Below are positions 1 through 15,238 of a DNA stretch of 15,906 bases, one piece after another. The stretch is from Bdellovibrionia bacterium. GTDB lineage: Bacteria; Bdellovibrionota; UBA1018. Location: assembly GCA_045805065.1 (NCBI GenBank), contig JBJMMA010000008.1, positions 1 through 15,906 on the forward strand, given 5' to 3'. The notes under the pieces were generated by a model that worked only from the letters and a program-made list of their open reading frames with translations, did not search any database and had not been told where the DNA came from. Made by a program: the position numbers and the translations under genes. How positions within the stretch are numbered: position 1 is the first letter of the stretch; each line of letters begins with the position of its first letter.

Positions 1-148
1 CATCGCCAATCGGGGGCACGCCGCACTCGAATGGCATATTCTTTCGCCGAGTAGGTAGTTTGGGTCCAAGGATGTAGGACACAAGCAGAGCCAGACCGCC
101 AATGGTTGCACCTGCAAGCATCAGAATCAAAACGGGAATGTAAGCCAT
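1..148 (-). CDS. nuoA: NADH-quinone oxidoreductase subunit A, second and canonical-type copy (5' part only, runs off the window edge; absent from the ORF track)
   Basis: Manual translation from ATG at 148: MAYIPVLILMLAGATIGGLALLVSYILGPKLPTRRKNMPFECGVPPIGD. It shows a TM1 helix followed by the typical NuoA/ND3 'K..P(F/Y)ECG..P.G' loop. Confidence 0.92.
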   Translation of the reverse strand, partial: MAYIPVLILMLAGATIGGLALLVSYILGPKLPTRRKNMPFECGVPPIGD

Positions 149-181
149 ATCTACTGGTATAGCCTTACGGAAAGGCCACTG

Positions 182-1651
182 CTACCATAAAATAAAGCCG
201 AGCGACTTTCCGGCCCAGGTCAGAACCTGGTTTGCGAAGACGCCTGCGAGGACCATCGGCACTACTAATACGACCAGAAACATCCGCCTTCGAGAGTCGC
301 CCGTGACAGGCGTTTTTCCGGGCACCGAGAGATCGCCAATCAGGTTGAAAGAGAGTCGCGCGATCGCCACCGAAGAAAGAGTGAGCGAAAAAACTCCGAG
401 AGCAGCAAGCGCCAACCATTGATGGCGAACCGCTGCGCCGATCAAAGTAAACTTGGCGATAAAGCCCGGCATCGGTGGAATTCCAACCAAGCAAAGAAGG
501 AAAAGCACCAAACAAATACACTCGGGTACCGCACGAACGAGCATGCCTCTGAGATCAACGAGTCGGTCTGACCCCAGTTCTTCGTAAAAGAAGGACAGAA
601 CATAAAACGTTCCCATCAAGGCAAAGAGCTCAATGACCAGGTTGTAGAGGAGGGCCGCGACACCGACCTGATCCAAGACCAGGATGCCGAGCAGCATGAA
701 TCCGGTTTGAACGATCACAAGGCAGCTGACAAGTCTTTTGGCGCTGGTTTGGCGGTAAGCCAATAGAGAGCCGATCATCATCGACATACCGGCAATCAGG
801 CCAATGATTTTTGGCCACTCGAGTGATCCCAGGATTTGCCAACGGCCTGGCTCCAGGGCGGGTTGTGCGAAAACAGAGATGAAAAAACGAGTCGCTACAG
901 CGAAGCCCGCCGCCCGAGCTCCGACAGAAAGGAACGCGGCAGCTGGCGTTGGAGCACCTTCAAGGACGTCAGGCGTCCAAAAGTACATCGGGAAGGAGCC
1001 AACCTGAAAGCACAAGGCCAAGAGCGAGAGCATGAAGATCACCAGCATCGCCGTATGGCTGAGCGGGTGAGCTAGCAGGCTTTGGTGAATTTCATAAAGG
1101 TTCAGGCTTTGGGTGTGGCCAAACAAAAGAGCAAATCCATAAAGGAGCAGGCCCCCGGCGACGGCGCTGAAAACCATGTACTTTACGGCTGCCTCAACAG
1201 ATGGCATCGATTGTTTTCCATAGCCGGCCAGAAAATAGCCCAAGATATTGAGGCATTGCAGGGCCATGAAAATCAAAAGCAAATCGGCCGAAGATGCGGC
1301 CAGGCACATGGCAAGCGTTGAAGCCAGAATGAGAGCCATGAACTCCGTGTGACGACTTTCTGGGATTTGCTTACTATGGCGCGACGCAACGACGGCAAGC
1401 GCCGCAAGGACGATGAACAGGAGCTTGAAGAAAAGCGAGAGTCCGTCGACAGAAACAGTTCCGTGGAAAATCTGGGCGGGTCCGAGTCGGTACGTGGCCA
1501 GAGTCTGGATGAACGCCGCCCCCAACCCAAACAGGGCCGAAGCTTGCACAAGGCGATGCTGCTCTCCGTGGTACGTGATCTCTGAGATCACGACGAAGGC
1601 TAGCGTCACGGCCAAAATCAGTTCAGGTAGAATCAGCAGGAATTCATTCAC
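182..1651 (-). CDS. nuoN: NuoN-like antiporter-type subunit, divergent (489 aa, GTG start)
   Basis: Hydrophobic multi-TM protein with 'LPEL', 'SVEAAVKY', 'WTPDVLEGAPTP', 'QTSAKRL' and 'GIPPMPGFIAKF' motifs. Last gene after nuoM. Confidence 0.93.
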   Translation of the reverse strand: MNEFLLILPELILAVTLAFVVISEITYHGEQHRLVQASALFGLGAAFIQTLATYRLGPAQIFHGTVSVDGLSLFFKLLFIVLAALAVVASRHSKQIPESRHTEFMALILASTLAMCLAASSADLLLIFMALQCLNILGYFLAGYGKQSMPSVEAAVKYMVFSAVAGGLLLYGFALLFGHTQSLNLYEIHQSLLAHPLSHTAMLVIFMLSLLALCFQVGSFPMYFWTPDVLEGAPTPAAAFLSVGARAAGFAVATRFFISVFAQPALEPGRWQILGSLEWPKIIGLIAGMSMMIGSLLAYRQTSAKRLVSCLVIVQTGFMLLGILVLDQVGVAALLYNLVIELFALMGTFYVLSFFYEELGSDRLVDLRGMLVRAVPECICLVLFLLCLVGIPPMPGFIAKFTLIGAAVRHQWLALAALGVFSLTLSSVAIARLSFNLIGDLSVPGKTPVTGDSRRRMFLVVLVVPMVLAGVFANQVLTWAGKSLGFILW

Positions 1652-1666
1652 GGTTATTTCACCATC

Positions 1667-1694
1667 GCCTATTTGACCAGTGCCTATTTGACCA
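1667..1694. repeat. 13-bp direct repeat (GCCTATTTGACCA x2, 15-bp period) at the nuoM/nuoN junction
   Basis: Identical copies at 1667-1679 and 1682-1694. They duplicate the last codons and TAG stop of nuoM. Confidence 0.85.
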
Positions 1695-3228
1695 TTGAAA
1701 GAAGAGTCACAACCGTCGGCCTGACAAGCTCGATCAGTGGCTTAGGATAAATTCCAAAGAATAGAAGGCTTGCGACCAAAGGAAGCAGGTAGAGCTTTTC
1801 GCGAATCGTAAGATCCGTAAAGGTTGCCGCTCCGTTTTGTTCAGAGTCAGCAAGGCTTCCAAGGAACACATAGCGATACATCGTAAACAAGCAGTAGGCG
1901 GCCAAAAGTCCGGAGATGCCGGCCAGAAGCGCTGCCACAGGATAAGACGAGAAGGCTCCGATGATGATCAGTGAGCTTCCGACAAATCCGCCTGAGCCCG
2001 GGAACGCAAGCAGAGAGGCGACAACGACGCCTGCCACCACTGCAACCGTCGGGGCTTGAAGAGCAATTCCATCAAACACGCGACCTCCGCTTTCGGTGCG
2101 GAAATCCGTTGTGCCAGAGCGCTCGCCCAGGAGATTTGCAAAAAGTCCAAAGCCCGCAATCGCAAGTCCAAGAGCAAGCTTTTGATAAACAGCGCCGACA
2201 AAACCTGGCGAGCTCAAAGAGCCTACGCCCAAAAGTAGGATGCCCACCTGGCTGACGCAGATGAAGGCCAAGAGCTTTCTAAGGTTTCTTTGTGTGACTG
2301 CGCAAAGAGCGCCGACGAGAAGATTGACCGTTCCCACGATCACAATTGCGGGTGCAAAGTGGAGAAGCGTTTCAGGAAAGAGGGTGCAGGTCAGGCGTTC
2401 AAAGATATAGACCGCCACCGGGACCGATGCTGCGCCAAGCGCCACGACAACCGAGAGGGGGGCCTCTTCAGCGGCATGCATGAACCATCCATGAAGTGGC
2501 CAGATCGGAGCACGGAAGGCAAGTCCGATGGAAATCAAGACAAAGGCAACCACCGGAACGGATGCTTCGTAGCCCAGGAACTCAAACATCTTTCCGTTGA
2601 GCTTTCCGCCGGCAAGGTCATGAAGCGAGAAAGTGTGCGGATCGATCGAGTAGTAAATGAGGATGAGGGCTGCAAGAAGGAATGCGTTTCCCACGCAAGC
2701 GGTGACAATCGATCGGAACGCCGCGCTTTCGCGGTCGCGCGTGCCCCAGATCCCAATGAGGAAATAAAATGGGAATGCGGTGAGGGCCCAGAAGAAAAGC
2801 TGAAGAAAAAGATCCTGCGCACAGACTGCTCCAATGAATGCGGTTTGAAGAACCAGAAACAAACCATGCATTCCGCGAACGCCGGTGCGGCGGTTCCACT
2901 CAGCAGAGATGAGGATAGGAAAGAGAATCGATATCAAAAGCACGAGCGGAGCATTCAGCCCGTCGACTGCCATGTCGTAGTGAATGGCGTAAGAGCCGAT
3001 CCAGGCAAAGCTCTCGGTTGCCTGAGGATCTGCCGTTGCGGCCTGCATGGAGACCACGGTCAGGATTCCGCACAGACTTGAAAGGAGACTGGTCGCCAGC
3101 GCGACCCAGCGTCCTGCGGGACGGGATAAATGGTTCTCGCCACGAGTGGAGACATCAGGAAGAAAACCCTGAAGGACGGCCCCGACTACGGGAAGAATGA
3201 TCATCAAGCTAATCAAGTAATTAAACAC
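1684..3228 (-). CDS. nuoM: NuoM-like antiporter-type subunit, divergent (about 514 aa; probable GTG start at 3228 rather than 3264)
   Basis: 'VDGL', 'DLFL..FFW....PFYFLIGIWG', 'PLHGW....EAP', 'PG..GFVG', 'DLTIRE' and 'GIYP' motifs. GAGGGG precedes the GTG at 3228, 13 nt after the nuoL stop. Confidence 0.92.
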   Translation of the reverse strand: MFNYLISLMIILPVVGAVLQGFLPDVSTRGENHLSRPAGRWVALATSLLSSLCGILTVVSMQAATADPQATESFAWIGSYAIHYDMAVDGLNAPLVLLISILFPILISAEWNRRTGVRGMHGLFLVLQTAFIGAVCAQDLFLQLFFWALTAFPFYFLIGIWGTRDRESAAFRSIVTACVGNAFLLAALILIYYSIDPHTFSLHDLAGGKLNGKMFEFLGYEASVPVVAFVLISIGLAFRAPIWPLHGWFMHAAEEAPLSVVVALGAASVPVAVYIFERLTCTLFPETLLHFAPAIVIVGTVNLLVGALCAVTQRNLRKLLAFICVSQVGILLLGVGSLSSPGFVGAVYQKLALGLAIAGFGLFANLLGERSGTTDFRTESGGRVFDGIALQAPTVAVVAGVVVASLLAFPGSGGFVGSSLIIIGAFSSYPVAALLAGISGLLAAYCLFTMYRYVFLGSLADSEQNGAATFTDLTIREKLYLLPLVASLLFFGIYPKPLIELVRPTVVTLLSMVK

Positions 3229-3241
3229 TCTGCCCCTCGCT

Positions 3242-5197
3242 TTAGCGCAGCATTCCCGCGCCAAACAAATAATGAGCCAGGATCACAAGTCCTGAACCCA
3301 TTCCAAACAAAAGATACCATTGCACATCGCCGTTTTGGATGAGCTGAAGAAACTTGGCCGGAGAATCAATGCATCTGCGAACCAGATTTCTTCCATTCAA
3401 TGACACCGCGGTGTCGACTCGAACGATTCCGTTGGCTGTCGAGCGGATGACTGTCGTCAACGCTTTCGGGATCCAGTTTTGCCAAACGTTCTTTTCGATC
3501 AGGGAATCTGCCTGGCTTGTTGCCCAGGTCATTCCATCGATCGTGCGCTTTGCCAGTCGATCCACTCCGTAACCTGAAACAATTACGTGGTGGATCTTGG
3601 CAGCAAAGCCATCCCCTTCAGGCTGCATCGTTTGAAGCGATGCCCAGTAAGCTGCGCCCAGAGAAAGGATCAATGCGCCAATGTAGGCGCCAAAAACTGT
3701 AGCGGTCTCTTCCACGCCAGCTGTCGGAGCTCCGAAAAGGAGTTCCATTAAGGATGGCGCGACTTTGTCCGCGCCGCCTGGGAGCGCGCCTCCCAAGATA
3801 GCGCCGTTCCAAGCAACACCCAGGGAGAGAAGAATCAGGATCGTCGGAATCACAAGCGATGACCAATGAGGCATGCTTGCCACTTTGCGACGGCTCATCA
3901 TCCATCCAAGCTTCCAACCTAAGATAGAGAAGAGAGCAAGACTCGAGAGAGCAGCGGCAGCTTGAGCTGGATCATGCCAGGACTGCATGAGCCAATCGAT
4001 CTGACCACCTGCTGAGACAAATCCTGCAACACCGATCGCCGCGGCGATCCCAAAAAAGCCAGCGGTCTTCGCCCAAATCACGGTTCCGCCAGCTACGGTC
4101 TCATCATTGAGTGGCGCTTCGGCGGACTGAAGCAAAGATTGGCAGCAAGTAAAGGCTGAGACTCCGAGTCCCAGGCCAACAATTAGGGCAAGGGCTGCCT
4201 GTGGAGAAGCCAGGCAGAGGATTGCGGCGGCAAGCGTTGCGCCTGAGGAGAACCAGGCTCCAAGGGATGCTTCCCACTCGGTTTGGAACATTCCCGAGAT
4301 GACTGCCAAAAGAGTTGAAGCAAGGAGCATCCAGCCAAAGACAGAAAAGACCATCTGGTCGCCCAAGCTCATTTGAAGGCGAATCAGAATTCCAAATGTC
4401 GCCCAGGCAGGAAACACCTGAGCCATCGTGATCCGAATCCAAGGAGAGGTTCTTCCTGGGCTAACGGTCCAAGAGAGCAATGGGAAGGGCTGGAGTTGAA
4501 CCAGAAGTCCTGCAAGCAGCAACACGGATCCCACAGTTTCGGAAAGTGATGCGCCTTGAGCAGCCGTGATCCAGTGCTGCGCTTTGGACCAAATGAGCGG
4601 CGCGCGACCTCCCGCGAGAGCACAAGCTCCCAGAATGGAGAGAATCAAACCAAAGGCGCGCTCTCTTCCAAAGCGGATCGCAAGTTCGGATTCCTCTTCA
4701 GCGTCCCAGCGAGAACCCAAGGAGAGAAAGCCCGCGAAGATCACAAGCGATAGCCCCCCAAGAGCAAGCCATGGGGTCAAGGCAAGCCAGCTCAGTGCGC
4801 ATCCGGCTGCTGCAAAAGCAATCGCACTATGCGTGCGCTCGGGGCGAGGCTGACTTGGAAGAACGCGCACGCCGGCAAGAAGGAGGGCGGCAAAGATGAC
4901 GCCTAAGCCCGCGAGCACAAGTCCTTGCGGGTCTTGAAGGATTCCGGCGGGAACGGCGCCTTCGCGGTCCACGGGCCAGATCCAGCCGCGAAGCCAGACA
5001 TGTGCGCGCGATGCTTCTTCAACAAGTCCGTTTCCGGCAAAGATCAGTGCGCCCGCCAATACGGCCAGAAAGAGACCCACTAACCAGTCGCCGTTGCGGG
5101 GAAGCTTTCGTCCCCAAGCGAGCGTGATTACGCCGCTTAACGCAAGAAGCGCGATACTGAGAACTAAGATGAACGGTGCGCTCTGGTTTTGGATCAT
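3242..5197 (-). CDS. nuoL: Highly divergent NuoL-like membrane subunit (651 aa)
   Basis: Lies between nuoK and nuoM and has NuoL-like length and many TM segments. Relics 'PFPLLSW' and 'QTE' remain, plus a long hydrophilic/amphipathic stretch and a C-terminal 'IQNGDVQWY'+TM matching the NuoL lateral helix and last TM. The core motifs are largely eroded. Confidence 0.8.
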   Translation of the reverse strand: MIQNQSAPFILVLSIALLALSGVITLAWGRKLPRNGDWLVGLFLAVLAGALIFAGNGLVEEASRAHVWLRGWIWPVDREGAVPAGILQDPQGLVLAGLGVIFAALLLAGVRVLPSQPRPERTHSAIAFAAAGCALSWLALTPWLALGGLSLVIFAGFLSLGSRWDAEEESELAIRFGRERAFGLILSILGACALAGGRAPLIWSKAQHWITAAQGASLSETVGSVLLLAGLLVQLQPFPLLSWTVSPGRTSPWIRITMAQVFPAWATFGILIRLQMSLGDQMVFSVFGWMLLASTLLAVISGMFQTEWEASLGAWFSSGATLAAAILCLASPQAALALIVGLGLGVSAFTCCQSLLQSAEAPLNDETVAGGTVIWAKTAGFFGIAAAIGVAGFVSAGGQIDWLMQSWHDPAQAAAALSSLALFSILGWKLGWMMSRRKVASMPHWSSLVIPTILILLSLGVAWNGAILGGALPGGADKVAPSLMELLFGAPTAGVEETATVFGAYIGALILSLGAAYWASLQTMQPEGDGFAAKIHHVIVSGYGVDRLAKRTIDGMTWATSQADSLIEKNVWQNWIPKALTTVIRSTANGIVRVDTAVSLNGRNLVRRCIDSPAKFLQLIQNGDVQWYLLFGMGSGLVILAHYLFGAGMLR

Positions 5198-5206
5198 GGG
5201 CTCTGC

Positions 5207-5539
5207 TCAGTTTTTCAGCGACTTGAGGTCGCTCATTTCAATTTTGTTTTTTAGGTAAAATAAACGAATGGCCAGGGCGAATCCTGCCACAAGCTGCGCA
5301 ATACCGCCCACAGCGATGAAAACGCCACCAGCGTGACCGCTCGCGCGCACAACGCCGTCTTGAATAGCGCCGGCAGAGCCGGCTTGAGTTGCGCCAGCAA
5401 AGATTCCTGCGACAACAAACATCATGGTCGCGCCCATGATCATGAGCTGAAGTCCGATCAAAAGACCCAGGAGGGTTCTTCTCATGACGACGCAAACAAG
5501 ACCCATGGCTCCAATCAGGCCAGCTACGGTCATTAACAT
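5207..5539 (-). CDS. nuoK: NuoK-like subunit, divergent (110 aa)
   Basis: Three TM helices, the 'RR.L' loop and the C-terminal 'DLKSLK'. GGAGGTG RBS; overlaps the end of nuoJ. Confidence 0.9.
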   Translation of the reverse strand: MLMTVAGLIGAMGLVCVVMRRTLLGLLIGLQLMIMGATMMFVVAGIFAGATQAGSAGAIQDGVVRASGHAGGVFIAVGGIAQLVAGFALAIRLFYLKNKIEMSDLKSLKN

Positions 5540-6096
5540 GACTCACCTCCCGATTGGGTCTCTGACTTGTTGTCGCCTGACTCTCGGTCACCAGACTCCG
5601 GACGCGCGACAACTCCGCCGCCTACCAAGATCAAAAACAAGGTGAGCGCCAGGACTTCCAGAGAGATGATGTGGTTTTCAACCATGACTCTGCCCAAAGA
5701 AGCGAGATCGTTGCCAGCAGCTGGAGCAGGGATTGGACCGCCTGGGAGATCGGCGGAGCCAAGATAAATAATCGCCGCAAAAGCCGCACCGATTGCGGTT
5801 GCAATCAATGTCGAGACAATGACTTTACGGTTGAGCATCTGACGGAGCGAGCGTTTTTCGCGTTGCTGGGATTCGTATTCGCCAAACATGACCGCAAAGA
5901 AGAAAAGCGCAATGGCAACCAGAGTCGAGATGATCCACTGAAGAACGGCAAGAGTCTCAGCGCCGACGGTAAGAAAGATGCATCCCATGGCAAGGCCTGC
6001 GATCCAGAGCGAGAGAATCGCCTGTCTCATTCCCTGAACCACCGTTGCAGTCAGAGTCGCACCTAAAGCAATTGCTGAAAAGACCCAGCTGATCAT
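5533..6096 (-). CDS. nuoJ: NuoJ-like subunit, divergent (187 aa)
   Basis: 'GAE.LA..Q' and 'LG......I..LEV....L....VG.....R' patterns, five hydrophobic segments, TGATG overlap with nuoI. Confidence 0.88.
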   Translation of the reverse strand: MISWVFSAIALGATLTATVVQGMRQAILSLWIAGLAMGCIFLTVGAETLAVLQWIISTLVAIALFFFAVMFGEYESQQREKRSLRQMLNRKVIVSTLIATAIGAAFAAIIYLGSADLPGGPIPAPAAGNDLASLGRVMVENHIISLEVLALTLFLILVGGGVVARPESGDRESGDNKSETQSGGESC

Positions 6097-6626
6097 CAGT
6101 CGCTATCTCCCATTTCAGCCAGTCTGCGCATTTCGGCCCACTTAGCTTGCTGCTCCGGCGTGACTCTTCCACGGCCAAAGCTTGCGACCATTTCTGGAAG
6201 CTCATAAGCCGCGTTCTCATAACGGCGGGTGTGAGTCAGAGACACAGGCTGACAGGCTTCCACGCAAAGTCCGCAAAAAATGCACTTGGAATAATCAATG
6301 TCAAAAATGGAAACCCAGTCTTTGCCAACGTCCGTGCCGGGTTGAACTTCAATCTTGATGCATTGGGTGGGGCAAACCTTTTCGCAGGCGCCACAACCCG
6401 TGCACTTATCGATGTCATTAAAAAGAAGTCCCCGGGAGCGCGGCGGAAGATCATCCGCCGTCTTCGAGGAAATCGGATCGGGGTATTGCTCGGTGACTTC
6501 CTTTCGGAGATCTCCTGCACTCAAAAGATACGGCAGCGCCGTCATGAAAGAGCCCGACACTGAGCGAACGCCCAGCAGGATTTCCCGAAAGTAGGCTCGA
6601 ATCGTCGAAAAAACAGACTGATTCAC
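6096..6626 (-). CDS. nuoI: NuoI-like 2x[4Fe-4S] subunit (about 176 aa; probable GTG start at 6626 rather than 6755)
   Basis: 'VTEQYP', 'R.RG', CTGCGACEKVCP and CIFCGLCVEAC motifs. GGAGG lies 8 nt before a GTG that overlaps the nuoH stop (GTGA). Confidence 0.95.
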   Translation of the reverse strand: MNQSVFSTIRAYFREILLGVRSVSGSFMTALPYLLSAGDLRKEVTEQYPDPISSKTADDLPPRSRGLLFNDIDKCTGCGACEKVCPTQCIKIEVQPGTDVGKDWVSIFDIDYSKCIFCGLCVEACQPVSLTHTRRYENAAYELPEMVASFGRGRVTPEQQAKWAEMRRLAEMGDSD

Positions 6627-7702
6627 AACATCGCCCTCCACCCTGCCCACAGGGCCGCACCAATCAGAGCTCCCAGCGAGAATGGACTCAGAACCTTCCA
6701 TGAGAAGTCCGTCGTTTGATCCACTCTTGCGCGTGGGTTTACTCTGGCAATCCAAATCAGAATCATCATGAGGCCGTAGGTCTTAGCCAACAGCCAGACA
6801 AGCTCAATGATCTCACGAAGCAAATGCTCGCTGCCATCGGTCACGCGCTCCACCAGCCACGACGGCAAGGTCCATGCGCCCAAGAAAAGAACGACCGTGA
6901 TCTGAGACCAAAGAAAAAATCCGTAGAATCGACCCAGGCGGAACAGGCTCAGTCTTCTTCCAGAGAGATCCGAAGAGACGCCGCCATGAAGATCCATCAC
7001 GGAGAGACCACCATCCATCGGCGGAACGTTCATGATGATGAGTCCGCTGGCGATGAAAACGATCATCGCGATGAATTGAAAAGGATTGGTCGTCGCAGTC
7101 CAATGAAGCGGTGATGCGCCTTGAACCTCCGCGAACGACGCCCAACGAAAGCTTCCGGAGCGGATGCCTGCGCAAAGCACACAGATCAGCGCGGGAAAAG
7201 CGCCAGCAAGGGCTTGAGCCGCAAGCCTGACTCCGCCAAACCACCCACTGACCGTGCCCTGGCTGAAACCCATGAGCATGGTGCCCAGAGCAAGAACGAG
7301 GGCGGACCAAAACGGAAGAAACGCGCTCATGTCCGTGTTGACAAGAATGGCTGCAGATCCCAGCGGCATGACGGCAACGGTTGAGTAGAGTGCCATCGTA
7401 TGGACGCCAAGCCAGAGCGTTTCATGCCAGTTCCATTCGCTGGAAGGCTCTTTCTGCAAAAACTTTAGAAGATCAGCCAGTGGCTGAAGGAGTCCCCAAG
7501 GACCCGAACGATTTGGGCCAACGCGTGCCTGAAAATCCGCGCTTAACTTGCGATCCACGAATGAGACCACTGCACCGCTGGGAAGAATGACGATTGTATA
7601 AATGAAGAAGATCCCAATCGTCGCAACAATCCATAGAGGCGTTCCCGAAGGAAGGCCGATCGTGGATTTCCAGATTTCAAGGGTTTGAGCGAGCGTCATC
7701 AT
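6623..7702 (-). CDS. nuoH: NuoH-like membrane subunit, divergent (359 aa)
   Basis: 'RK.....Q.RVGPNR.GP.GLLQP.AD.LK...KE', 'LFLG.W' and 'PR.R.DQ.....WK' motifs. ATGA overlap with nuoD. Confidence 0.95.
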   Translation of the reverse strand: MMTLAQTLEIWKSTIGLPSGTPLWIVATIGIFFIYTIVILPSGAVVSFVDRKLSADFQARVGPNRSGPWGLLQPLADLLKFLQKEPSSEWNWHETLWLGVHTMALYSTVAVMPLGSAAILVNTDMSAFLPFWSALVLALGTMLMGFSQGTVSGWFGGVRLAAQALAGAFPALICVLCAGIRSGSFRWASFAEVQGASPLHWTATTNPFQFIAMIVFIASGLIIMNVPPMDGGLSVMDLHGGVSSDLSGRRLSLFRLGRFYGFFLWSQITVVLFLGAWTLPSWLVERVTDGSEHLLREIIELVWLLAKTYGLMMILIWIARVNPRARVDQTTDFSWKVLSPFSLGALIGAALWAGWRAML

Positions 7703-8883
7703 CGGTCAGCCTCCGCAATGCTCAGATCGAGGCTTGCAAGTAGAACAGGAAGGTCTTCGATTCTGATTCCAACCAGAACTTCCGGAAGCGCCATCAGAGC
7801 CGCAGTCGTTGGCGTATGAAATTGGATGCGAGAAGGCTTTGGTCCGCCCTCCGAGATCACATGACAAGAAATCATTCCGCGTGAGCTCTCAACGCGCGTG
7901 TAAGCTTCGCCGGATGGTACTTTGATCCGATAGTCTTCAGCGCCTGCCTCGGGGAGAATCTGGCGGTTCAAGAACGCGCCTGACGGAATTGTCTCAGCAA
8001 CATGCTTGAGGATCTCAAGACTTTCCGTCATCTCAAGAAGCTTGAGGAGGAAGCGGTCGTGAGAATCACCTAAGACGCCGTCTGTTCCGCGTCCGACTGG
8101 AACGCGGAAATCGAGGCTTTTATAGCTGAGATAAGGATGCGCCTTGCGAACATCAAAGGTGACGCCTGCAGCACGCGCATTGGAGCCTGTAATTCCAAAG
8201 CGGTTCACAAGCTCAGCGGAGAGAATGCCCATCTTGGCCGTGCGCTTGAGGAACGTATTATTGAAAGTCAGAAGATCATTATATTCCTTGATCCGGATTC
8301 GAATCAGATCGCAGACCTCAAGGACTCGTTCGATAAATCCTTCGGTCACGTCCGCGCTCACGCCGCCAAATCTCAAAAAGTTAATCGAGAATCTTGCGCC
8401 GGTCAGAAGCTCAAAGAGGTCGAGAATGCGCTCTCGATCGCGCAACACGTAGTGAACAAGCGTTTCAGCGCCCACGGCCTTTGAAACATTGACCAGATAA
8501 AGCATGTGCGCGGAGAGGCGCGTCAGCTCTGACAAAATCACACGAATGCTGACCGCACGCGCAGGAACATCAATTCCAGCGATCTCCTCAACGGCCAGAC
8601 AAAGCGCAAGCTCGCCGTAAATGGCGGCCTCTGGATCCAGGTGATCCGAGTAAGCAATCGATGCGTTCCAGTCGTGCTTTTCAATGGCCTTCTCAAGTCC
8701 TTTGTGGAGAAAGCCCGTTTCCACGCTGCCCGAAACGATGATCTCGCCATCCAAAACAAGGCGCAGCTTCATGGGCGCAGGAAGCGATGAGTGATAAGGG
8801 CCAATCTCCCAGCCGATGAGGTCCGTGCGAAGGCACTCAGAGCGTGAACGATGACTTTCGTTTTTTGGCGTCGGGTGCATCAT
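7699..8883 (-). CDS. nuoD: NuoD-like (49 kDa family) subunit lacking the quinone-binding residues (394 aa)
   Basis: 'LDGE', 'G.LH.GLEK', 'LAVE...GI.VP.RA', 'EL.R...H', 'GEAY.RVE..RG' and C-terminal 'D....E.DR'. No NiFe CxxC motifs. Confidence 0.95.
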   Translation of the reverse strand: MMHPTPKNESHRSRSECLRTDLIGWEIGPYHSSLPAPMKLRLVLDGEIIVSGSVETGFLHKGLEKAIEKHDWNASIAYSDHLDPEAAIYGELALCLAVEEIAGIDVPARAVSIRVILSELTRLSAHMLYLVNVSKAVGAETLVHYVLRDRERILDLFELLTGARFSINFLRFGGVSADVTEGFIERVLEVCDLIRIRIKEYNDLLTFNNTFLKRTAKMGILSAELVNRFGITGSNARAAGVTFDVRKAHPYLSYKSLDFRVPVGRGTDGVLGDSHDRFLLKLLEMTESLEILKHVAETIPSGAFLNRQILPEAGAEDYRIKVPSGEAYTRVESSRGMISCHVISEGGPKPSRIQFHTPTTAALMALPEVLVGIRIEDLPVLLASLDLSIAEADR

Positions 8884-9362
8884 TTCGCACTAGCTCCAAC
8901 GGAATAGGATTTGCGCATCGGAAACTCAGAGTCATCCGCTAAGAGCGTTCGGCACGTCTCAATCGTCTCTCCGGATGCATTTTTGAACCGGATTCCAAAA
9001 AGCTGAGCAGCCTCGTTTTCCAACGGTGCAGCCATTGGCCAGACGTCGCAAACAGAGGCGAGCTCTACGGCCTCTTTTTCTGACGTAATGATAACAGAGC
9101 TTCGCATCACGAGCTGCGCCTGGGTTTCACGCGAGCGCAAAAACCAGGAGACAACCAGTGAGTCGCCCACTTCCGCTACGGAAAGATTTTCAAGCCATTG
9201 AAGCTTGAGAGTCGGCTCTTCACTCACGGCCTTTGCAAACGCGTGAACCGCTGTGGATTCGATCCAGACCGAAAGAAGATCCGATCGTCCAAAGCGGCCG
9301 GACTCAAGGACTTTGCCCGGAGCAGCCTTTTCAAGTTTTGAGAGTATCGCGTTCGCTTCCAC
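8880..9362 (-). CDS. nuoC: NuoC-like (30 kDa family) subunit, divergent (about 160 aa; probable GTG start at 9362)
   Basis: 'S...VWP.A...E.E....FGIRF' and 'FPMRK.Y' match the NuoC C-terminal signature. AGGAG precedes GTG at 9362. Lies between nuoB and nuoD. Confidence 0.88.
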   Translation of the reverse strand: MEANAILSKLEKAAPGKVLESGRFGRSDLLSVWIESTAVHAFAKAVSEEPTLKLQWLENLSVAEVGDSLVVSWFLRSRETQAQLVMRSSVIITSEKEAVELASVCDVWPMAAPLENEAAQLFGIRFKNASGETIETCRTLLADDSEFPMRKSYSVGASAK

Positions 9363-9801
9363 GGATCTTCTCCTGAAGGGCAATCAGGCCGTTCATGATG
9401 GCTTCAGGGCGTGGGGGGCAGCCTGGAACGTAAACATCCACAGGGACCACTTCGTGCGCGCCTGAAAGGGTTGAGTAGGAATAGTCGGGTCCGAAAAGTC
9501 CGCCGCAGTTTGCGCACGATCCGACCGCAAGAACGTATTTAGGCGAGAGCATGGAATCATAGAGCTCGCGCAGATGAGGCGCGGCCTTTTTGGAAACCAT
9601 TCCGCTGATGATTAACAAATCCGCTTGTCTTGCATCGACCTGAGGAAGGCATCCAAAGCGCTCCATGTCGTAGCGCGCCCCCATCGTGTTGAGAACTTCA
9701 TCCGCGCAGCAGCCACTGCCGGTTGAGATGTACCAAAGCGATTGGGAGCGAGCCCATTTCAATGCTTTGCCAAGAGTAGAGGTGTAAAAAGAACCAGCCA
9801 T
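9331..9801 (-). CDS. nuoB: NuoB-like (20 kDa family) N2-cluster subunit (156 aa)
   Basis: 'WAR..SLW', tandem CC, 'RYD.ERFG', 'RQADL', 'GSCA..GG' and 'VPVDVYVPGCPPRPEA'. Confidence 0.97.
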   Translation of the reverse strand: MAGSFYTSTLGKALKWARSQSLWYISTGSGCCADEVLNTMGARYDMERFGCLPQVDARQADLLIISGMVSKKAAPHLRELYDSMLSPKYVLAVGSCANCGGLFGPDYSYSTLSGAHEVVPVDVYVPGCPPRPEAIMNGLIALQEKIRGSERDTLKT

Positions 9802-9804
9802 CGC

Positions 9805-10215
9805 TTACCCATTCCCCTTAGTTTTCTGAAATGACTGCACCCAACTCAGATCACCTTTACGGGAGGAGTACAAAAGTCCAAGTCCGCAGAAAGTCGCGAG
9901 CGATACGATCGCAATCAGGCATCGAAGAAATGTTCCCCGATCCGTGGCTTGCTGAAGCATCCCTGTGCATGGAATCAAAATAAGCGCGATTGCCATCAGG
10001 ATCAGGGCCGCGTTAACGCCCAGGAAAAATCGCGCATTGATCTTTCTTCTCAAGAGCTCCGCGGTGACGGCGTTTTGTACGGGCTTCTTTTGGGCTGAGG
10101 CTTTGCCGCGCTCCGCTGAGACCAAATAGGAGAAAAGGCCAAGCAAGGCAGGAACGCCGAGTGCAAGCAGCGCAGAAAGGAACACAACGTAGTAAACATC
10201 CCAGCTGCTTGGCAT
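9805..10215 (-). CDS. nuoA: NuoA-like subunit, divergent (136 aa)
   Basis: Three TM helices, 'RFFL' at the start of TM2 and C-terminal 'Y..RKGDLSW'. First gene, directly before nuoB. Lacks the ECG and FD.E motifs. Confidence 0.85.
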   Translation of the reverse strand: MPSSWDVYYVVFLSALLALGVPALLGLFSYLVSAERGKASAQKKPVQNAVTAELLRRKINARFFLGVNAALILMAIALILIPCTGMLQQATDRGTFLRCLIAIVSLATFCGLGLLYSSRKGDLSWVQSFQKTKGNG

Positions 10216-10244
10216 GACTCAATGAACGCCGCAGCGTTCCTCCT
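10216..10244 (-). promoter_or_regulatory. Ribosome-binding region of the first nuoA: AGGAGG separated from the ATG by a hairpin
   Basis: Minus strand reads AGGAG-GAACGC-TGCG-GCGTTC-ATTGAGTC-ATG. SD at 10244-10239, 6-bp stem spanning 10239-10224, then 8 nt to the ATG. Confidence 0.55.
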
Positions 10245-10317
10245 ATGATGGTTTCAGGGAAGGATAAATTTTAATCTGTTTTTTTATGAATTATTAAGGT
10301 TTTGAAGCCTCGCGAAA

Positions 10318-10346
10318 AGGTTACTGAAGTAGAATAGGGGTGTCAA
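10318..10346 (-). promoter_or_regulatory. Putative sigma70 promoter for the nuo-like operon
   Basis: Minus strand TTGACA (10346-10341), 17-nt spacer, TAACCT (10323-10318), in an AT-rich divergent intergenic region. Confidence 0.7.
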
Positions 10347-10369
10347 GTTTCGTGGATACTGATTATTGT

Positions 10370-10400
10370 TTAAGTCGAGGCGGCCTCGCCGCTACGCTTA
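10370..10400 (+). repeat. REP-like intergenic repeat, copy 1
   Basis: TTAAGTCGAGGCGGCCTCGCCGCTACGCTTA. 30/31 identical to the reverse complement of 15140-15170; internal GCGGC-N3-GCCGC palindrome. Confidence 0.85.
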
Positions 10401-10428
10401 TGTTGAGACACATCGCCAGACATATCAA

Positions 10429-13400
10429 ATGACATCTAGCGGGAGCTCCATCATCTGCCGCTCGCTCGACGAGCTTAACTCTCGACATGCAGACTCATCG
10501 AGTCACGAGCCAGTGCGCGTTCATGGAGCAACGCCATCCGCACAAGCACTTCTTGTTCTTCGTGTCATTGAAGCACGTCTTGCCCAGAGCCGACTTGATC
10601 CTATTGTCATTCTTTGTGCGGATGATGACGTTGCAAGTGAGTTTGCCGGGGATGTTGAATCTCTTGCGGCAGCGCTGGATTTACCATCGCCTTGCATCCT
10701 CCAATTTCCAACTTGGGAGCAATCTCCGTATAGCCCGATTGCTCCTTCGATCCGAACACGTTTAGCCAGAGTCGCTGCGTTAAGCACTCTAGCGAGCGGC
10801 GCTGGCGGCCGCGTTCCGGTTCTGTTCACCACGATCGCTGCCCTGAGCCAAGCTACTCTTCCACATGAAGAGTTTATTCGTTATTCGCTGAAATTGGAGA
10901 CAGGTCAAAGCGTTGAGTCCCGTGAAAGACTCATTCAGCGTCTTCTTGAGGCGGGATACCTTCGTGTTGATCCCGTCGAGGATCCGGGAAACTTTGCGGT
11001 CCGAGGCGATATCATCGATGTCTATCCGCCCGATCGGGATCAGCCTTTAAGAATTGAGCTTTTCGGGGACGAGATTGAGAGGATCCGCGAGTTTGATCCA
11101 GCCACGCAAAGAACGGCGTCGCCTGAGGTACCCGATCTTCAAGTAGTCACCGTTCCTCCTGCACGCGAGGTTCTGATCAATTCCGTCACGACATCTCGCG
11201 TGCGTGAGAAAGTCAAAGCTCGCGCCGATGACCGCGGGGTTCCAAGACCCGTTCGTGATCCGGTGATGGCCTCCATTCATAGCGGAAACTATCCGGATCA
11301 TAGCGACGCCTGGGCCCCCTTAGCCTACGAGAACCCGGCCACGCTGCTCGATTATCTCAATGATGGTGCAACAACGTTTTGGGTCGATGAGCTCAGCATT
11401 CTTCAAAGATGGGATGAGCATCTGGATGAGCAAAAGCGCCTCTCCAGCGAGTCCGACCACCCTGAGCTGATTTTGCCTGCGGTAGAGGAACTCTATCAAT
11501 GGAGTCCTTCGGCCGAAAAGAAGGTTCGCAGCCAGAGCATCCTTTATCTGGATCGCGTTCAGCTGGCAGATCTTGAGTCTCTTCCTCAAGGAGATGAAGA
11601 CAAAGAAGCCGCAGCACTCACAGGTCCCAAAGAGCCTGAAGTCTCATCGCGCCACACCGTTTTTGTTCGTGGCAATCAGGATCTTGCCAGGGGAACCAAG
11701 CACTCGTTAGGTGAGCTTGAGGCAAAGTTTAAGCTTTGGGTGAAGCAAGGGTTTAAGATCATCACTCTAGCCTCAACGCAAAGCCAGCTTGAGCGCATCC
11801 GCTATCTTTTGGAAGAGCATCAGATCACAACTCATGCCGAGGCTGCACCAGGGCGCGTGGCTCTTAAGATCGGAAGCTTGTCTGCCGGGTTTCGTTGGCC
11901 CGCCGAAGGTCTTGTCATCCTGGTTGAAGACGAGATCCTGGGAGCAAAACATAAAAAGAAGCAGCGCCGGGCAAGCACCGCACAAAGCGGATCGGCCGCA
12001 AAGGACTGGTCGGGTCTTCAGGCACTTTCTGATCTTGCAGTAGGTGATGCCATTGTTCACCTGGACCATGGCATTGGAAAGTATCAGGGGCTTGTGCGCT
12101 TGAGCCTCTCGGGCGCACCGAGTGACTTCCTTCAACTCGAGTACGCCAACAAAGATAAGCTTTATCTTCCTGTTTATCGCCTGAACGTCATTCAAAAGTA
12201 CTCGGGCGGGGCAGACGCCGTCAGTTTGGATCGACTGGGAAGTCAGACCTTTGCCCGGACAAAAGAGAAGGTTCGCGATGCCGTTCGGAAAATCGCAATC
12301 GATCTCGTCAAACTTTACGCCGAAAGAAAAATCAGGCCGGGACACGTCTTTTCGGGTCGCGACTCGCTTTTTCAGGAATTTGAAGCGCGCTTTCCGTTTG
12401 ATGAGACCCCGGATCAGCTCAAGGCCATTGATCAGGTTCTGGATGACATGCAATCCGGTCGCGTGATGGATCGCCTGATCTGCGGTGATGTGGGCTATGG
12501 AAAGACTGAAGTCGCCATTCGCGCAGCCTTCCGAGCCGTTTCAGATGGAAAACAAGTTGTCGTCCTGGTTCCCACCACGGTTTTGGCTTTTCAACATGAG
12601 CAGAACTTCAAAGCTCGGATGAAAGATTATCCAATCAATATTGAATCCGTCTCGCGCTTCAAAACAGCGAAAGAACAAAAGACCATTCTTGAGGGCGTCG
12701 CCAAAGGCAAGATCGACATCATCATCGGCACCCACAGGCTTTTGTCCAAGGACGTCTCCTTTAATGATCTGGGACTCGTGATCGTGGACGAGGAGCATCG
12801 CTTTGGCGTGGAACATAAAGAGCGCCTCAAAACCCTTAGAACCAATATCCATGTCGTCACATTGACGGCGACTCCAATTCCACGCACGCTTCACATGGCG
12901 CTCTCTGGACTTCGTGACATCAGCCTGATTAATACGCCTCCTGTGGACCGTCTCCCGATTCGCACCTATGTCTCAAAACTTGATGATGCCTTGGTTCAAA
13001 AGGCGATCAACTATGAGCTCAATCGTGGCGGCCAGGTCTTTGTTCTTCATAACCGGGTTCAATCCATTCATGAGCTGGCAAAGCGAATCAAAGAGCTCGT
13101 GCCTACGGCAAATATTGGAGTGGGTCATGGTCAGATGGGCGAGGGCGAGCTTGAAAAGACCATGCTCGATTTCTACCAGAAGCGGACCAATGTTCTGGTC
13201 AGTACAACCATCATTGAATCCGGCCTCGACGTCCCATCGGCCAATACCATCATTATCAATCGCGCCGACTCCCTGGGGCTTGCTCAGCTTTATCAGATTC
13301 GCGGACGAGTCGGGCGCGGACAGCAGCGCGCTTATGCTTACCTTCTGATCCCTGCCGAGGGGGCAGTGACTGAGGATGCAAAACGACGTCTTGAGGTCAT

Positions 13401-14061
13401 TCAGCGCTTCGTTGAGCTTGGAAGTGGCTTTAGCATTGCCTCCCATGACTTGGAGATTCGCGGAGGGGGAGACCTTCTGGGTCCGCAGCAATCCGGGCAT
13501 ATTGCTGCCGTGGGCTTTGACCTTTATACAGAGATTCTTGAAGAAGCCATTCAAGAGATTGAGGGTTCCCCACAAACAGCGCAGACTCAGACCCGTCGCG
13601 AGCCTGAGATCAAACTGCCATTTGCTGCCTTCTTGGGAGAGGAATACGTTCCTGACATCCATCAGCGCCTCTCCTTATATAGGCGGTTTTCTGCAACGAC
13701 TCAGGAAGGTGAGCTCGATGCCCTGGAAGAGGAACTCAGGGATCGGTTTGGCCCGCTTCCACCGGAGGCTCAAAACCTGCTTTGGATGATCCGACTCAAA
13801 CAGCTTCTGGTTCGTAGCGGTATTGATAGCCTAACCGCTGGGCCTGAAAAAGTATCGATGATCATCGGCTCGGGCAGCGCCGTTGATCCGGTAAAAGCAA
13901 TCTCGGTTGTGGCTGGCGATCGCACGCGCTATCAGCTCACGCCGGACCCGTCCGGGCCAGGACATACCAAGCTTGTTGCCAAGGTCCCAACAGGCACACT
14001 GCGGGACCTCTATTTTGCCATCGAGTCGCTTTTGAAAAAACTGACCGGCATGGCCGCCTGA
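10429..14061 (+). CDS. mfd: Transcription-repair coupling factor Mfd (start uncertain; ATG 10429 preferred over TTG 10366)
   Basis: UvrB-like N-terminal region ('FAVRGDIIDVYP'), RID ('VHLDHGIGKY', 'DKLYLPV'), SF2 motifs GDVGYGKT, DEEH, TATPIPRT and QIRGRVGR, the TRG 'DLEIRGGG' motif and a TRCF C-terminal domain. Confidence 0.98.
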   Translation: MTSSGSSIICRSLDELNSRHADSSSHEPVRVHGATPSAQALLVLRVIEARLAQSRLDPIVILCADDDVASEFAGDVESLAAALDLPSPCILQFPTWEQSPYSPIAPSIRTRLARVAALSTLASGAGGRVPVLFTTIAALSQATLPHEEFIRYSLKLETGQSVESRERLIQRLLEAGYLRVDPVEDPGNFAVRGDIIDVYPPDRDQPLRIELFGDEIERIREFDPATQRTASPEVPDLQVVTVPPAREVLINSVTTSRVREKVKARADDRGVPRPVRDPVMASIHSGNYPDHSDAWAPLAYENPATLLDYLNDGATTFWVDELSILQRWDEHLDEQKRLSSESDHPELILPAVEELYQWSPSAEKKVRSQSILYLDRVQLADLESLPQGDEDKEAAALTGPKEPEVSSRHTVFVRGNQDLARGTKHSLGELEAKFKLWVKQGFKIITLASTQSQLERIRYLLEEHQITTHAEAAPGRVALKIGSLSAGFRWPAEGLVILVEDEILGAKHKKKQRRASTAQSGSAAKDWSGLQALSDLAVGDAIVHLDHGIGKYQGLVRLSLSGAPSDFLQLEYANKDKLYLPVYRLNVIQKYSGGADAVSLDRLGSQTFARTKEKVRDAVRKIAIDLVKLYAERKIRPGHVFSGRDSLFQEFEARFPFDETPDQLKAIDQVLDDMQSGRVMDRLICGDVGYGKTEVAIRAAFRAVSDGKQVVVLVPTTVLAFQHEQNFKARMKDYPINIESVSRFKTAKEQKTILEGVAKGKIDIIIGTHRLLSKDVSFNDLGLVIVDEEHRFGVEHKERLKTLRTNIHVVTLTATPIPRTLHMALSGLRDISLINTPPVDRLPIRTYVSKLDDALVQKAINYELNRGGQVFVLHNRVQSIHELAKRIKELVPTANIGVGHGQMGEGELEKTMLDFYQKRTNVLVSTTIIESGLDVPSANTIIINRADSLGLAQLYQIRGRVGRGQQRAYAYLLIPAEGAVTEDAKRRLEVIQRFVELGSGFSIASHDLEIRGGGDLLGPQQSGHIAAVGFDLYTEILEEAIQEIEGSPQTAQTQTRREPEIKLPFAAFLGEEYVPDIHQRLSLYRRFSATTQEGELDALEEELRDRFGPLPPEAQNLLWMIRLKQLLVRSGIDSLTAGPEKVSMIIGSGSAVDPVKAISVVAGDRTRYQLTPDPSGPGHTKLVAKVPTGTLRDLYFAIESLLKKLTGMAA

Positions 14062-14064
14062 TTT

Positions 14065-14088
14065 GTCGAGGCGGCCATGCCGCTACGC
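14065..14088 (+). repeat. REP-like intergenic repeat, copy 2
   Basis: GTCGAGGCGGCCATGCCGCTACGC. 22/24 identical to the core of copy 1, with both differences in the hairpin loop. Starts 3 nt after the mfd stop. Confidence 0.82.
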
Positions 14089-14112
14089 CTATACCTATGA
14101 TGCTCAACTGGG

Positions 14113-14140
14113 CAAAATCGGTCGCGGCGGCGACCTTTTG
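14113..14140 (+). terminator. Possible intrinsic terminator after mfd
   Basis: GGTCGC-GGCG-GCGACC hairpin followed by TTTTG and preceded by CAAAA. The U-tract is short. Confidence 0.5.
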
Positions 14141-14184
14141 ACTGTCACAGACTCAAGGTCACTTTGCGCGAGTGCTGGTTGCAT

Positions 14185-14212
14185 TTGCCAAGTTTAAAAA
14201 AGCTGCTACGCT
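14185..14212 (+). promoter_or_regulatory. Putative sigma70 promoter for the PPIase gene
   Basis: TTGCCA-N16-TACGCT with an extended -10 TG, followed by GAGG and the ATG at 14237. Confidence 0.5.
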
Positions 14213-14236
14213 TTAAGGATACGTGAGGAAAAGTTT

Positions 14237-15070: not shown

Positions 15071-15098
15071 CTGACTCTAACCAGTCGGATTCCTGTTT

Positions 15099-15140
15099 AA
15101 GGCGCGTGGTGATTTTTCACCCCGCGCCTTTTGTTTTTTT
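15099..15140 (+). terminator. Intrinsic terminator after the PPIase gene
   Basis: AAGGCGCG-T-GGTGA-TTTT-TCACC-C-CGCGCCTT stem-loop followed by TTGTTTTTTT. Confidence 0.8.
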
Positions 15141-15170
15141 AAGCGTAGCGGCGGGGCCGCCTCGACTTAA
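15140..15170 (-). repeat. REP-like intergenic repeat, copy 3 (inverted)
   Basis: Reverse complement is TTAAGTCGAGGCGGCCCCGCCGCTACGCTTA, one mismatch to copy 1, located in the loop. Confidence 0.85.
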
Positions 15171-15238
15171 CGCTTCGCCCCAGGGCCCCGTATGTCCAGT
15201 GGACAGTCGAGCACAGGATGTGCGAGAAGGTATAGGTG

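Follow-up and report, generated by a model that had tools for sequence, protein, structure and literature searches.

Here, we describe a second, divergent nuo-like gene set in a Bdellovibrionia bacterium of the GTDB lineage UBA1018 within Bdellovibrionota (assembly GCA_045805065.1), located on contig JBJMMA010000008.1, which was analysed over its whole length, positions 1 to 15,906 (hereafter the window). The set occupies positions 182-10215 of the window on the minus strand, and its subunits carry the prefix x to separate them from those of the canonical nuo operon resident in the same genome. It consists of 11 uninterrupted open reading frames (ORFs) in the order A, B, C, D, H, I, J, K, L, M, N, with neighbouring genes either overlapping or separated by gaps of at most 53 nt, and the 11 intact nuo-like genes in canonical order recognised in the initial annotation are thereby borne out. 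Each of the 11 core subunits, NuoA-D and NuoH-N, has a homologue encoded in the set, xA being assigned on weak support, and the cluster, which lacks nuoEFG, has the gene set of the 11-subunit NDH-1 or 'Nuo11' forms. The product would be a full-size complex I relative, with a quinone (Q) module of subunits B, C, D and I and a membrane part of subunits H, A, J, K, L, M and N.

The operon opens with xA (9805..10215), which encodes a very divergent NuoA/ND3 homologue of 136 amino acids (aa) that was assigned using an orthologue profile and the ESM Atlas. It is followed by xB (9331..9801), a NuoB homologue with all four N2 cysteines (Pfam Oxidored_q6, 3.1e-28), xC (8880..9383), a NuoC homologue of 167 aa when taken as the longest ORF (Complex1_30kDa, 7.8e-13), and xD (7699..8883), a NuoD homologue without the His, Tyr and Asp of the quinone site (Complex1_49kDa, 1.5e-67). 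Next come xH (6623..7702), a NuoH homologue in which the loop between transmembrane helices (TM) 1 and 2 is kept and the E-channel acids are missing (NADHdh, 3.1e-53), xI (6096..6626), a NuoI homologue with two complete four-Cys motifs (Fer4 families; NCBIfam NuoI, 4.2e-22), xJ (5533..6096), a NuoJ homologue with Ser in place of the TM3 Tyr (Oxidored_q3, 1.8e-10), and xK (5207..5539), a NuoK homologue with Gln in place of both membrane Glu (Oxidored_q2, 8.9e-9). The three antiporter-like subunits close the operon: xL (3242..5197), a highly divergent NuoL homologue of 651 aa assigned with a 22-sequence profile and an Atlas model, xM (1684..3264), a NuoM homologue (NCBIfam NDH_I_M, 315 bits), and xN (182..1651), a NuoN homologue (NDH_I_N, 244 bits with a cut-off of 333). 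Pfam families are thus matched by nine of the 11 products (B, C, D, H, I, J, K, M and N), and neither xA nor xL has any match in Pfam or NCBIfam. Only xB (193 vs 116 bits) and xM (315 vs 264) pass the curated NCBIfam cut-offs, with xD (329 vs 360 bits), xN (244 vs 333), xH, xI, xC, xJ and xK all scoring below theirs.

Three of the gene calls needed further attention. The longest ORF of xI extends to 6755 and would overlap xH by 133 nt, with its first approximately 43 codons unconserved; since 23 orthologues show conservation from about residue 47 onwards, translation likely starts from the GTG at 6626, a codon overlapping the stop of xH. For xL, precomputed Pfam domains are absent from all 19 homologues, NdhF is found with a profile built from 22 orthologues (E=1.7e-11), and the ESM Atlas model of exactly this protein aligns to NuoL clusters with a template modelling score of 0.75 over 549 residues, which together identify the predicted protein as a NuoL homologue. 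The grounds are weaker for xA, which we assign to NuoA from its place in the operon, a profile match and leads from the Atlas: a 15-orthologue profile matches ND3 (E=0.024) and, less well, E. coli NuoA (E=0.26-0.45), and the Atlas returns Oxidored_q4 clusters scoring 0.86 and 0.84, with a template modelling score of 0.60 against ND3. The protein also has a conserved C-terminal Lys-Gly-Asp-Leu-x-Trp segment, for which the resident NuoA has an equivalent at its own C-terminus.

The ligands of the iron-sulfur (Fe-S) clusters were examined in an alignment of 25 rows, of which four are canonical and 21 true x sequences. In xB, the N2 ligands Cys32, Cys96 and Cys128 occur in 25/25 rows and Cys31 in 24/25, and in xI all eight ligand cysteines of clusters N6a and N6b are found in 25/25 rows. 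All 12 Fe-S cysteines of the two subunits are therefore in place, as in complex I, and the persistence of the NuoB and NuoI ligands noted earlier holds in 24-25 of the 25 rows. An additional cysteine, Cys99 of xB, lies three residues past the third N2 ligand in 19/21 x rows and 0/4 canonical rows, and could alter the ligation or the potential of cluster N2. All four canonical NuoB rows carry Ser at this position.

The residues on which coupling in complex I depends present a different picture. In the available text of a 2023 review, the minimum necessary sites are given as the NuoD His/Asp pair, the E-channel glutamates, a NuoJ Tyr and the Glu, Lys and His of the antiporter-like subunits (PMC10212512). 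The His/Asp pair of the 49-kDa/NuoD subunit is described there as protonating the quinone, the E-channel glutamates include E36 and E72 of NuoK, the Tyr is that of NuoJ/ND6 TM3, and each antiporter-like subunit contributes GluTM5, LysTM7, Lys/HisTM8 and Lys/GluTM12 (PMC10212512). To locate these sites, each x subunit or a profile of its orthologues was aligned to solved complex I chains and to the resident canonical paralogue. Residues were counted over a core set comprising the window and 18 loci, or fewer where a gene is missing; two of these loci (L009 and L010) are nearly identical, and the relatives are draft metagenome bins that are not independent of each other.

For xD, the closest solved relative is T. 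thermophilus Nqo4 (1.1e-69), and in numbering counted from the alignment His38 is replaced by Pro35, Tyr87, which we take to be part of the quinone head-group site, by Pro84, and Asp139 by Ala136. The two prolines are found in 18/19 (Pro35) and 19/19 (Pro84) core orthologues, where they lie within the conserved motifs LPGP and DPE, and the position of Asp139 is variable (Ala in 13, Ser in three, and three others). With Pro/Pro/Ala at these positions, xD lacks the quinone head-group residues of complex I, in agreement with the loss of quinone-binding residues that had been reported for this gene. Nqo4 His169 and the Glu of the NuoJ 'GAE' motif had also been considered as diagnostic sites and were dropped, as the resident canonical proteins are without them too.

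Along the E-channel, the xK profile aligned to E. coli NuoK (1.1e-9) has Gln31 for Glu36 and Gln82 for Glu72, each kept as Gln in 18/19 sequences, and the xJ profile aligned to Paracoccus Nqo10 (2e-8) has Ser in place of the TM3 Tyr, alongside a one-residue deletion, in 15/18 sequences. On a weak alignment, the positions of the two TM2 acids of NuoA correspond to Met74 and Ile76 of xA. Alignment of the xH profile with NdhA and NuoH chains shows Ala in place of the Glu in the Ser-Tyr-Glu loop motif, and neither the Glu and Arg of TM6 nor the acidic loop residues remain. At one xH site the charge is reversed rather than lost: Arg258 is present in 19/19 sequences where the resident NuoH has Glu, and the position is still Glu in the basal loci L021 and L022. 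The loss of E-channel residues proposed in the initial annotation for NuoH, A, J and K thus stands for xK, xJ and xH and, given the weak alignment, probably for xA, and the E-channel of complex I is not recognisable in these subunits. It does not extend to the cavity-lining TM1-2 loop of NuoH, which is fully kept in xH with Arg51 and Asp77 in 19/19 sequences and two Lys in addition, and the Pro-Arg-x-Arg-x-Asp-Gln segment of TM8 is likewise kept.

The replacements continue through the antiporter-like subunits. The xM profile, aligned to Paracoccus Nqo13 (1e-73), has Ala for the TM5 Glu, Arg251 for the TM7 Lys, Pro282 for the TM8 Lys and Ser for the TM12 Glu; in the core set the TM7 Arg and the TM8 Pro are each invariant (15/15), and the other two sites vary, with five different residues at TM5 and His in seven sequences among others at TM12. 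In the xN profile, aligned to cyanobacterial NdhB (6.1e-75), the TM5 Glu is replaced by Gln132 (Gln in 11/14), the TM7 Lys by Gln216 (13/14) and the TM8 Lys by Arg246 (14/14), and the TM12 Lys is retained as Lys400 (13/14). Against NdhF, xL shows Ala for the TM5 Glu, Gln for the TM7 Lys and Gly or Ala for the TM8 His/Lys, its TM12 site is not alignable, and none of its 18 invariant and 35 near-invariant columns is Lys, Glu or His. Across the 11 alignable relay sites of the three subunits, the canonical residue is retained only at the TM12 Lys of xN, and the relay found in the antiporter-like subunits of complex I is therefore missing. The earlier claim that nearly all charges of the L/M/N axis are lost is correct for most sites, with the qualification that this Lys is kept and that two Lys, in TM7 of xM and TM8 of xN, have been exchanged for Arg with the charge retained. 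Taken with xD, neither the quinone site nor the proton relay that the 11-subunit NDH-1 and 'Nuo11' forms retain is retained in the x set.

Despite these replacements, the x operon is under purifying selection and is not decaying. The ratio of non-synonymous to synonymous substitutions (omega), estimated by the Nei-Gojobori method for a single genome pair with a genome of the same genus (locus L003), is 0.025-0.117 for nine genes from xA to xL, values that are rough because the synonymous divergence (dS) of the x genes is 1-3, and 0.006-0.056 for resident canonical genes of the same genome pair, NuoG being excluded because of a poor alignment. Among the x subunits xB has relaxed least, with a non-synonymous divergence (dN) of 0.043 against 0.039 for the resident NuoB. 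The 11 intact ORFs, with omega far below 1, are unlike a pseudogene cluster, in which frameshifts or stops and omega near 1 are expected, and this comparison of orthologues, which had been proposed as a check on the initial annotation, gives no support to a decaying duplicate. In many cases the replaced sites are themselves near-invariant, which points to remodelling and not drift, and many of the replacements, set in conserved local motifs, are selected in their new form.

Orthologous operons with the same substitutions, the search for which had also been suggested, were found, and many of the replacements are fixed across the core set. At E<=1e-10 xL matched 45 of 401 evenly sampled Bdellovibrionota genomes, representing 36 of 204 genera; the matches include 40 of the 57 genomes of the organism's own family and one genome in each of four further families of the same order, and all other families sampled among the 401 genomes are without a match. 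We equate this order with the GTDB class, order and family UBA1018, proposed as 'Bdellonasia', an equation that rests on names in the available text of the source (PMC13200544). According to the same text, the members of UBA1018 are all uncultured, and one of our loci (L014) belongs to the FG-1 genome 'Bdellonasus magneticus' (PMC13200544). The xH profile separates the groups less sharply, with 212/401 genomes matched at E<=1e-40, 45 genomes at 300 bits or more, and scores that grade without a clean break. Matches to xH of about 200 bits in two genomes of one large family (f22) raised the possibility of an x-type operon there, which was rejected since they belong to an ordinary nuoAHJKLMN-type cluster; the NuoH of these two genomes is 36-38% identical to the resident NuoH vs 29-32% to xH. 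A search for sequencing runs listed five soil-metagenome DNA sources and no RNA source.

The x set is deeply divergent from the resident operon. Identities between corresponding subunits are 22-45% (25% for xC), and for xA and xL BLAST gave no significant match to the resident subunits. The identity of xD to the resident NuoD is 31%, vs 34-40% to those canonical NuoD that come closest to it in other lineages. A FastTree phylogeny of NuoD was built from 172 sequences, namely the loci together with the 150 top-scoring representatives found when 1.84 billion proteins were searched, with sequences of fewer than 300 aligned residues excluded. In this tree the x-type NuoD form one clade of 65 tips (SH-like support 0.995), a split whose depth could be overstated by long-branch effects. 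The His is absent from 65/65 tips of the clade and the Tyr is kept in seven basal tips; outside the clade, His, Tyr and Asp are all found in 65 of the 107 NuoD tips. Because 40 of the 65 x-clade tips represent clusters at 50% identity, the family is diverse, and given these 40 His-less NuoD clusters it may reach beyond Bdellovibrionota. A homologue search with two profiles returned mostly the Bdellovibrionota clade, followed by canonical NuoD, and a search of metagenome loci with a single protein (P0029) returned one locus, a canonical 14-gene operon. The label that public pipelines give to x-type NuoD is 'NADH-quinone oxidoreductase subunit D'; one copy is attributed to Methylotenera sp., probably through a binning or labelling conflict.

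The identity values and the NuoD tree together exclude that the x set arose recently from the resident operon by tandem duplication. The initial annotation had called the gene set a paralog, which is right as to deep divergence and wrong if understood as a copy of the neighbouring operon, since xD is less similar to the resident NuoD than to that of other lineages and falls in a separate clade. Part of the history may be preserved in three basal loci (L021, L022 and L024), which share the synteny on the mfd side or on that of the canonical operon and retain the Tyr of xD, the TM8 Lys and TM12 Glu of xM, the TM5 Glu of xN and several acids of xH. This partial retention of canonical residues suggests that the losses proceeded stepwise within a single, vertically inherited locus. 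A fourth locus (L026), also a basal relative at this chromosomal site, belongs with these three, and together they have the look of intermediates.

The surroundings of the operon are very stable. Upstream and divergent from xA, positions 10366-15904 of the plus strand carry mfd (1231 aa; TIGR00580, 1052 bits), a PpiC-type peptidyl-prolyl isomerase (PPIase) gene and a SurA-like gene, and the same three genes occur in the same order in 18/18 loci that reach upstream. A consensus scan of the 150-nt gap between xA and mfd yielded a promoter-like site at 10268..10297 on the minus strand (9/12 matches); with five such sites against 3.8 expected by chance, the scan gives no indication of function. 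On the other side, canonical nuoA begins at window base 148, 33 nt past the xN stop, and its 5' part (1..148, minus strand; 49 codons) is translated off the end of the contig. The neighbouring canonical operon mentioned in the initial annotation is thus present, with the correction that it starts inside the window itself. The nuoA frame continues onto another contig of the assembly (C105, positions 1-264), which carries nuoB to nuoN including nuoE, nuoF and nuoG. Since the two contigs share a 9-base end overlap inside canonical nuoA and the NuoA frame is continuous across it, they are neighbours and form one array of 25 genes, made up of the x operon and the canonical 14-gene nuo operon, with a single nuoEFG; NuoF is single-copy in the genome and located in the canonical operon. 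The arrangement is shared by the relatives, in that canonical nuoB lies 350-555 bp downstream in 16/16 loci that extend at least 500 bp beyond xN.

Some other Bdellovibrionota organise their nuo genes differently. In two loci of another large family (L036, G128:C1:20000-39999, and L035, G009:C1) there is a nuoA-H-J-(K)-L-M-N cluster without B, C, D and I, and in the first of these genomes (G128) a second H-J-K-L run directly follows the first cluster, with genes of canonical and not of x type. This split arrangement matches that of cultured predators as described in the available part of one paper (PMC13147790).

Compared with known systems, the x operon shares with canonical complex I (NDH-1, NuoA-N) the 11 core subunits and their order, the Fe-S ligand sets and the NuoL-type fold of xL, but differs from it in the absence of NuoEFG, in the replaced residues of the quinone site, the E-channel and TM5, TM7, TM8 and TM12, and in its separate NuoD clade. 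Cyanobacterial and plastid NDH-1 and the bacterial 11-gene nuo clusters likewise have 11 genes and no N-module, and NDH-1 chains are the best matches for xH (NdhA), xN (NdhB) and xL (NdhF). However, the aligned NDH-1 chains retain Glu and Lys where the x profiles show Gln, Arg, Pro and Ala, and, unlike in NDH-1, there are no NdhS-, NdhV- or NdhO-like genes in or beside the x operon, the upstream genes being mfd and two PPIases. A further likeness is to the Ehr, Mbx and MBS group, whose catalytic-subunit homologue, like xD, is without both the NiFe cysteines and the standard quinone site and is described in the accessible text as having a function that is unknown or non-standard (PMC6349859). 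According to that text, Ehr is thought to translocate charge via Mrp-like subunits (PMC6349859), the corresponding residues of which are gone in the x set, and, unlike Ehr, Mbx and MBS, the x cluster has NuoA, NuoJ, NuoK and a NuoL-like subunit in nuo order. Membership of the Ehr group was rejected, as xD scores 238 bits to Nqo4 vs 193 to the MBS, 136 to the Mbh (MbhL) and 99 to the FHL large subunits. Nor is xD that of a group-4 hydrogenase, being without its cysteines and lying apart in the tree from hydrogenase-like sequences that carry the Cys motifs. Syntrophobacter fumaroxidans resembles this genome in having two nuo sets and one nuoEFG, but, unlike for the x set, no loss of catalytic residues is reported in the portion of that paper available (PMC4453560). 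Similarly, the available text of a Peredibacter paper has two nuo clusters in cultured predators and reports no residue losses, and an mBio survey, as far as its accessible text goes, considered 14-gene clusters only. The initial annotation knew of no system of this kind, and this agrees with the literature searched, subscription journals being outside its coverage, in which no complex I paralogue with these losses is described.

It is a sound inference from these sequences that the x operon is selected for a function that would be other than quinone-coupled proton pumping, as had originally been proposed, because it is maintained with low omega in 36 genera and yet lacks the residues that are essential for coupling in the available text of the review (PMC10212512). 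As to what this function is, our preferred reading, to which we give slightly less than an even chance, is an assembled, non-pumping derivative of complex I that still carries electrons to a rebuilt site. The x subunits would assemble in the shape of complex I, and electrons would enter at NuoI from a soluble low-potential donor, as in other 11-subunit forms without NuoEFG. They would then pass along the wire of three clusters to the rebuilt pocket beside N2, where a new acceptor, or a quinone bound in a different manner, would be reduced without ion translocation. The neutralised membrane arm may serve as anchor and scaffold, with the neutral but polar Gln and the Arg replacements possibly preserving the packing of the former hydrophilic axis. 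In favour of this reading are the intact and selected genes, the retained Fe-S ligands, the slow evolution of xB, the fixed replacements, the added Cys beside an N2 ligand and the conserved TM1-2 loop of xH. A fuller version, in which a pump-dead complex I that still works in redox has been kept class-wide as an Fe-S wire to a non-quinone or non-standard quinone site, and so would amount to a new enzyme class evolved in steps, is put forward a little more tentatively.

Several observations weigh against this preferred reading. Fe-S ligands can persist for folding alone, and xI, through which electrons would enter, is approximately 20-fold more relaxed than the resident NuoI (dN 0.063 vs 0.003); the high dS makes the omega values imprecise, and the alignments are weak for xA (E=0.024), xJ (2e-8) and xL (1.7e-11). 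No donor was found, the operon being without NuoEFG and the sole NuoF lying in the canonical operon. 2-oxoacid:ferredoxin oxidoreductases are reported for related FG genomes in the available text of one study (PMC13200544), and a supply of ferredoxin from such enzymes was considered and set aside, as the genome, which is 94% complete, has no match to their N-domain (PF01855) and carries sucA. Nor was an acceptor found. A complex prediction of xI and xD with the resident NuoG gave a score of 0.00, with no controls folded, and counts neither for nor against any reading.

Among the alternatives, a non-redox scaffold or regulator is the one to be taken most seriously, though we consider it unlikely. 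Here the Fe-S clusters would be structural, and the complex would organise the membrane or modulate the resident complex I or respiratory complexes encoded adjacent to it. The placement directly upstream of the canonical nuo operon (16/16 loci, with the 33-nt gap in the window) fits co-expression, and the missing donor module, the closure of the quinone pocket by two prolines and the retention in xL of columns of the Gly, Trp, Pro and Asp type only are all in its favour. It sits less well with the strict conservation of all 12 Fe-S ligands, to which a new Cys near N2 has been added, and with xB being as constrained as the resident NuoB. A quite different and improbable explanation is that the x set is a non-pumping isoform fed by NADH, which borrows the adjacent NuoEFG and acts as an uncoupled relief valve for NADH reoxidation or forms hybrids by exchanging subunits. 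One nuoEFG serving two sets of the other genes in an array of 25 would fit this explanation, as does the like gene arithmetic in S. fumaroxidans, for which two isozymes are thought possible in the available text (PMC4453560). However, the subunit that would make the contact to NuoG, xI, has relaxed far more than its resident counterpart. Identity between x and resident subunits is no more than 22-45%, with no significant BLAST match for xA and xL, and xH, xN and xL find their best matches in NdhA, NdhB and NdhF, chains of NDH-1, which needs no NuoEFG to function.

That the x complex could still be an energy-converting ion pump, using an unconventional relay (Gln, Arg, His and the kept TM12 Lys of xN) or another ion, appears more improbable still. 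The polar Gln, Gln, Arg and Lys that persist along xK and xN, and the good conservation of xM and xN (50-63% identity across genera), could be taken in this sense, but Gln and Arg are unable to shuttle protons, the acid positions of xH and xA are now hydrophobic, and the His/Asp pair with which the proton cascade begins is missing. Moreover, NuoL, the counterpart of xL, is the sole exit in the current model as given in the available text of the review (PMC10212512), and yet xL is without conserved Lys, Glu or His. Finally, a decaying duplicate on its way to loss is close to refuted. Its case consists of scattered breaks, with xD frameshifted in one locus (L018) and truncated in another (L020), xH split by a stop in one genome (G317) and an in-frame stop, probably at the gene edge, in a second (G290), and of the 17/57 genomes of the organism's own family in which xL has no match. 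These breaks come from draft metagenome bins and may be assembly errors, and the six in-frame stops among the 46 xL matches sit at the edges of match-length open frames. Against decay, omega is far under 1 in 9/9 genes tested, the window and most loci have all eleven ORFs intact, and the replaced residues are fixed and not drifting.

No respiratory pump is larger or less understood than complex I, and models of its coupling are built on site-directed mutants affecting the very residues that are replaced here. The natural replacements mirror such mutants (Glu to Gln, Lys to Arg or Gln, His or Tyr to Pro), and a natural, stable particle with all sites neutralised would thus be on offer for structural and biophysical comparison, with a possible new redox activity at the rebuilt N2 pocket. 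Further, the series of intermediates could be used to order the losses and, if the stepwise scenario is true, the basal relatives with the Tyr and relay residues record that order. For annotation, metabolic reconstructions of these organisms may count a pump that is absent here, because pipelines automatically label x genes as 'NADH-quinone oxidoreductase subunit D' and the like. For the Bdellovibrionota that carry it, long selection over at least 36 genera would show that the architecture of complex I is useful without pumping.

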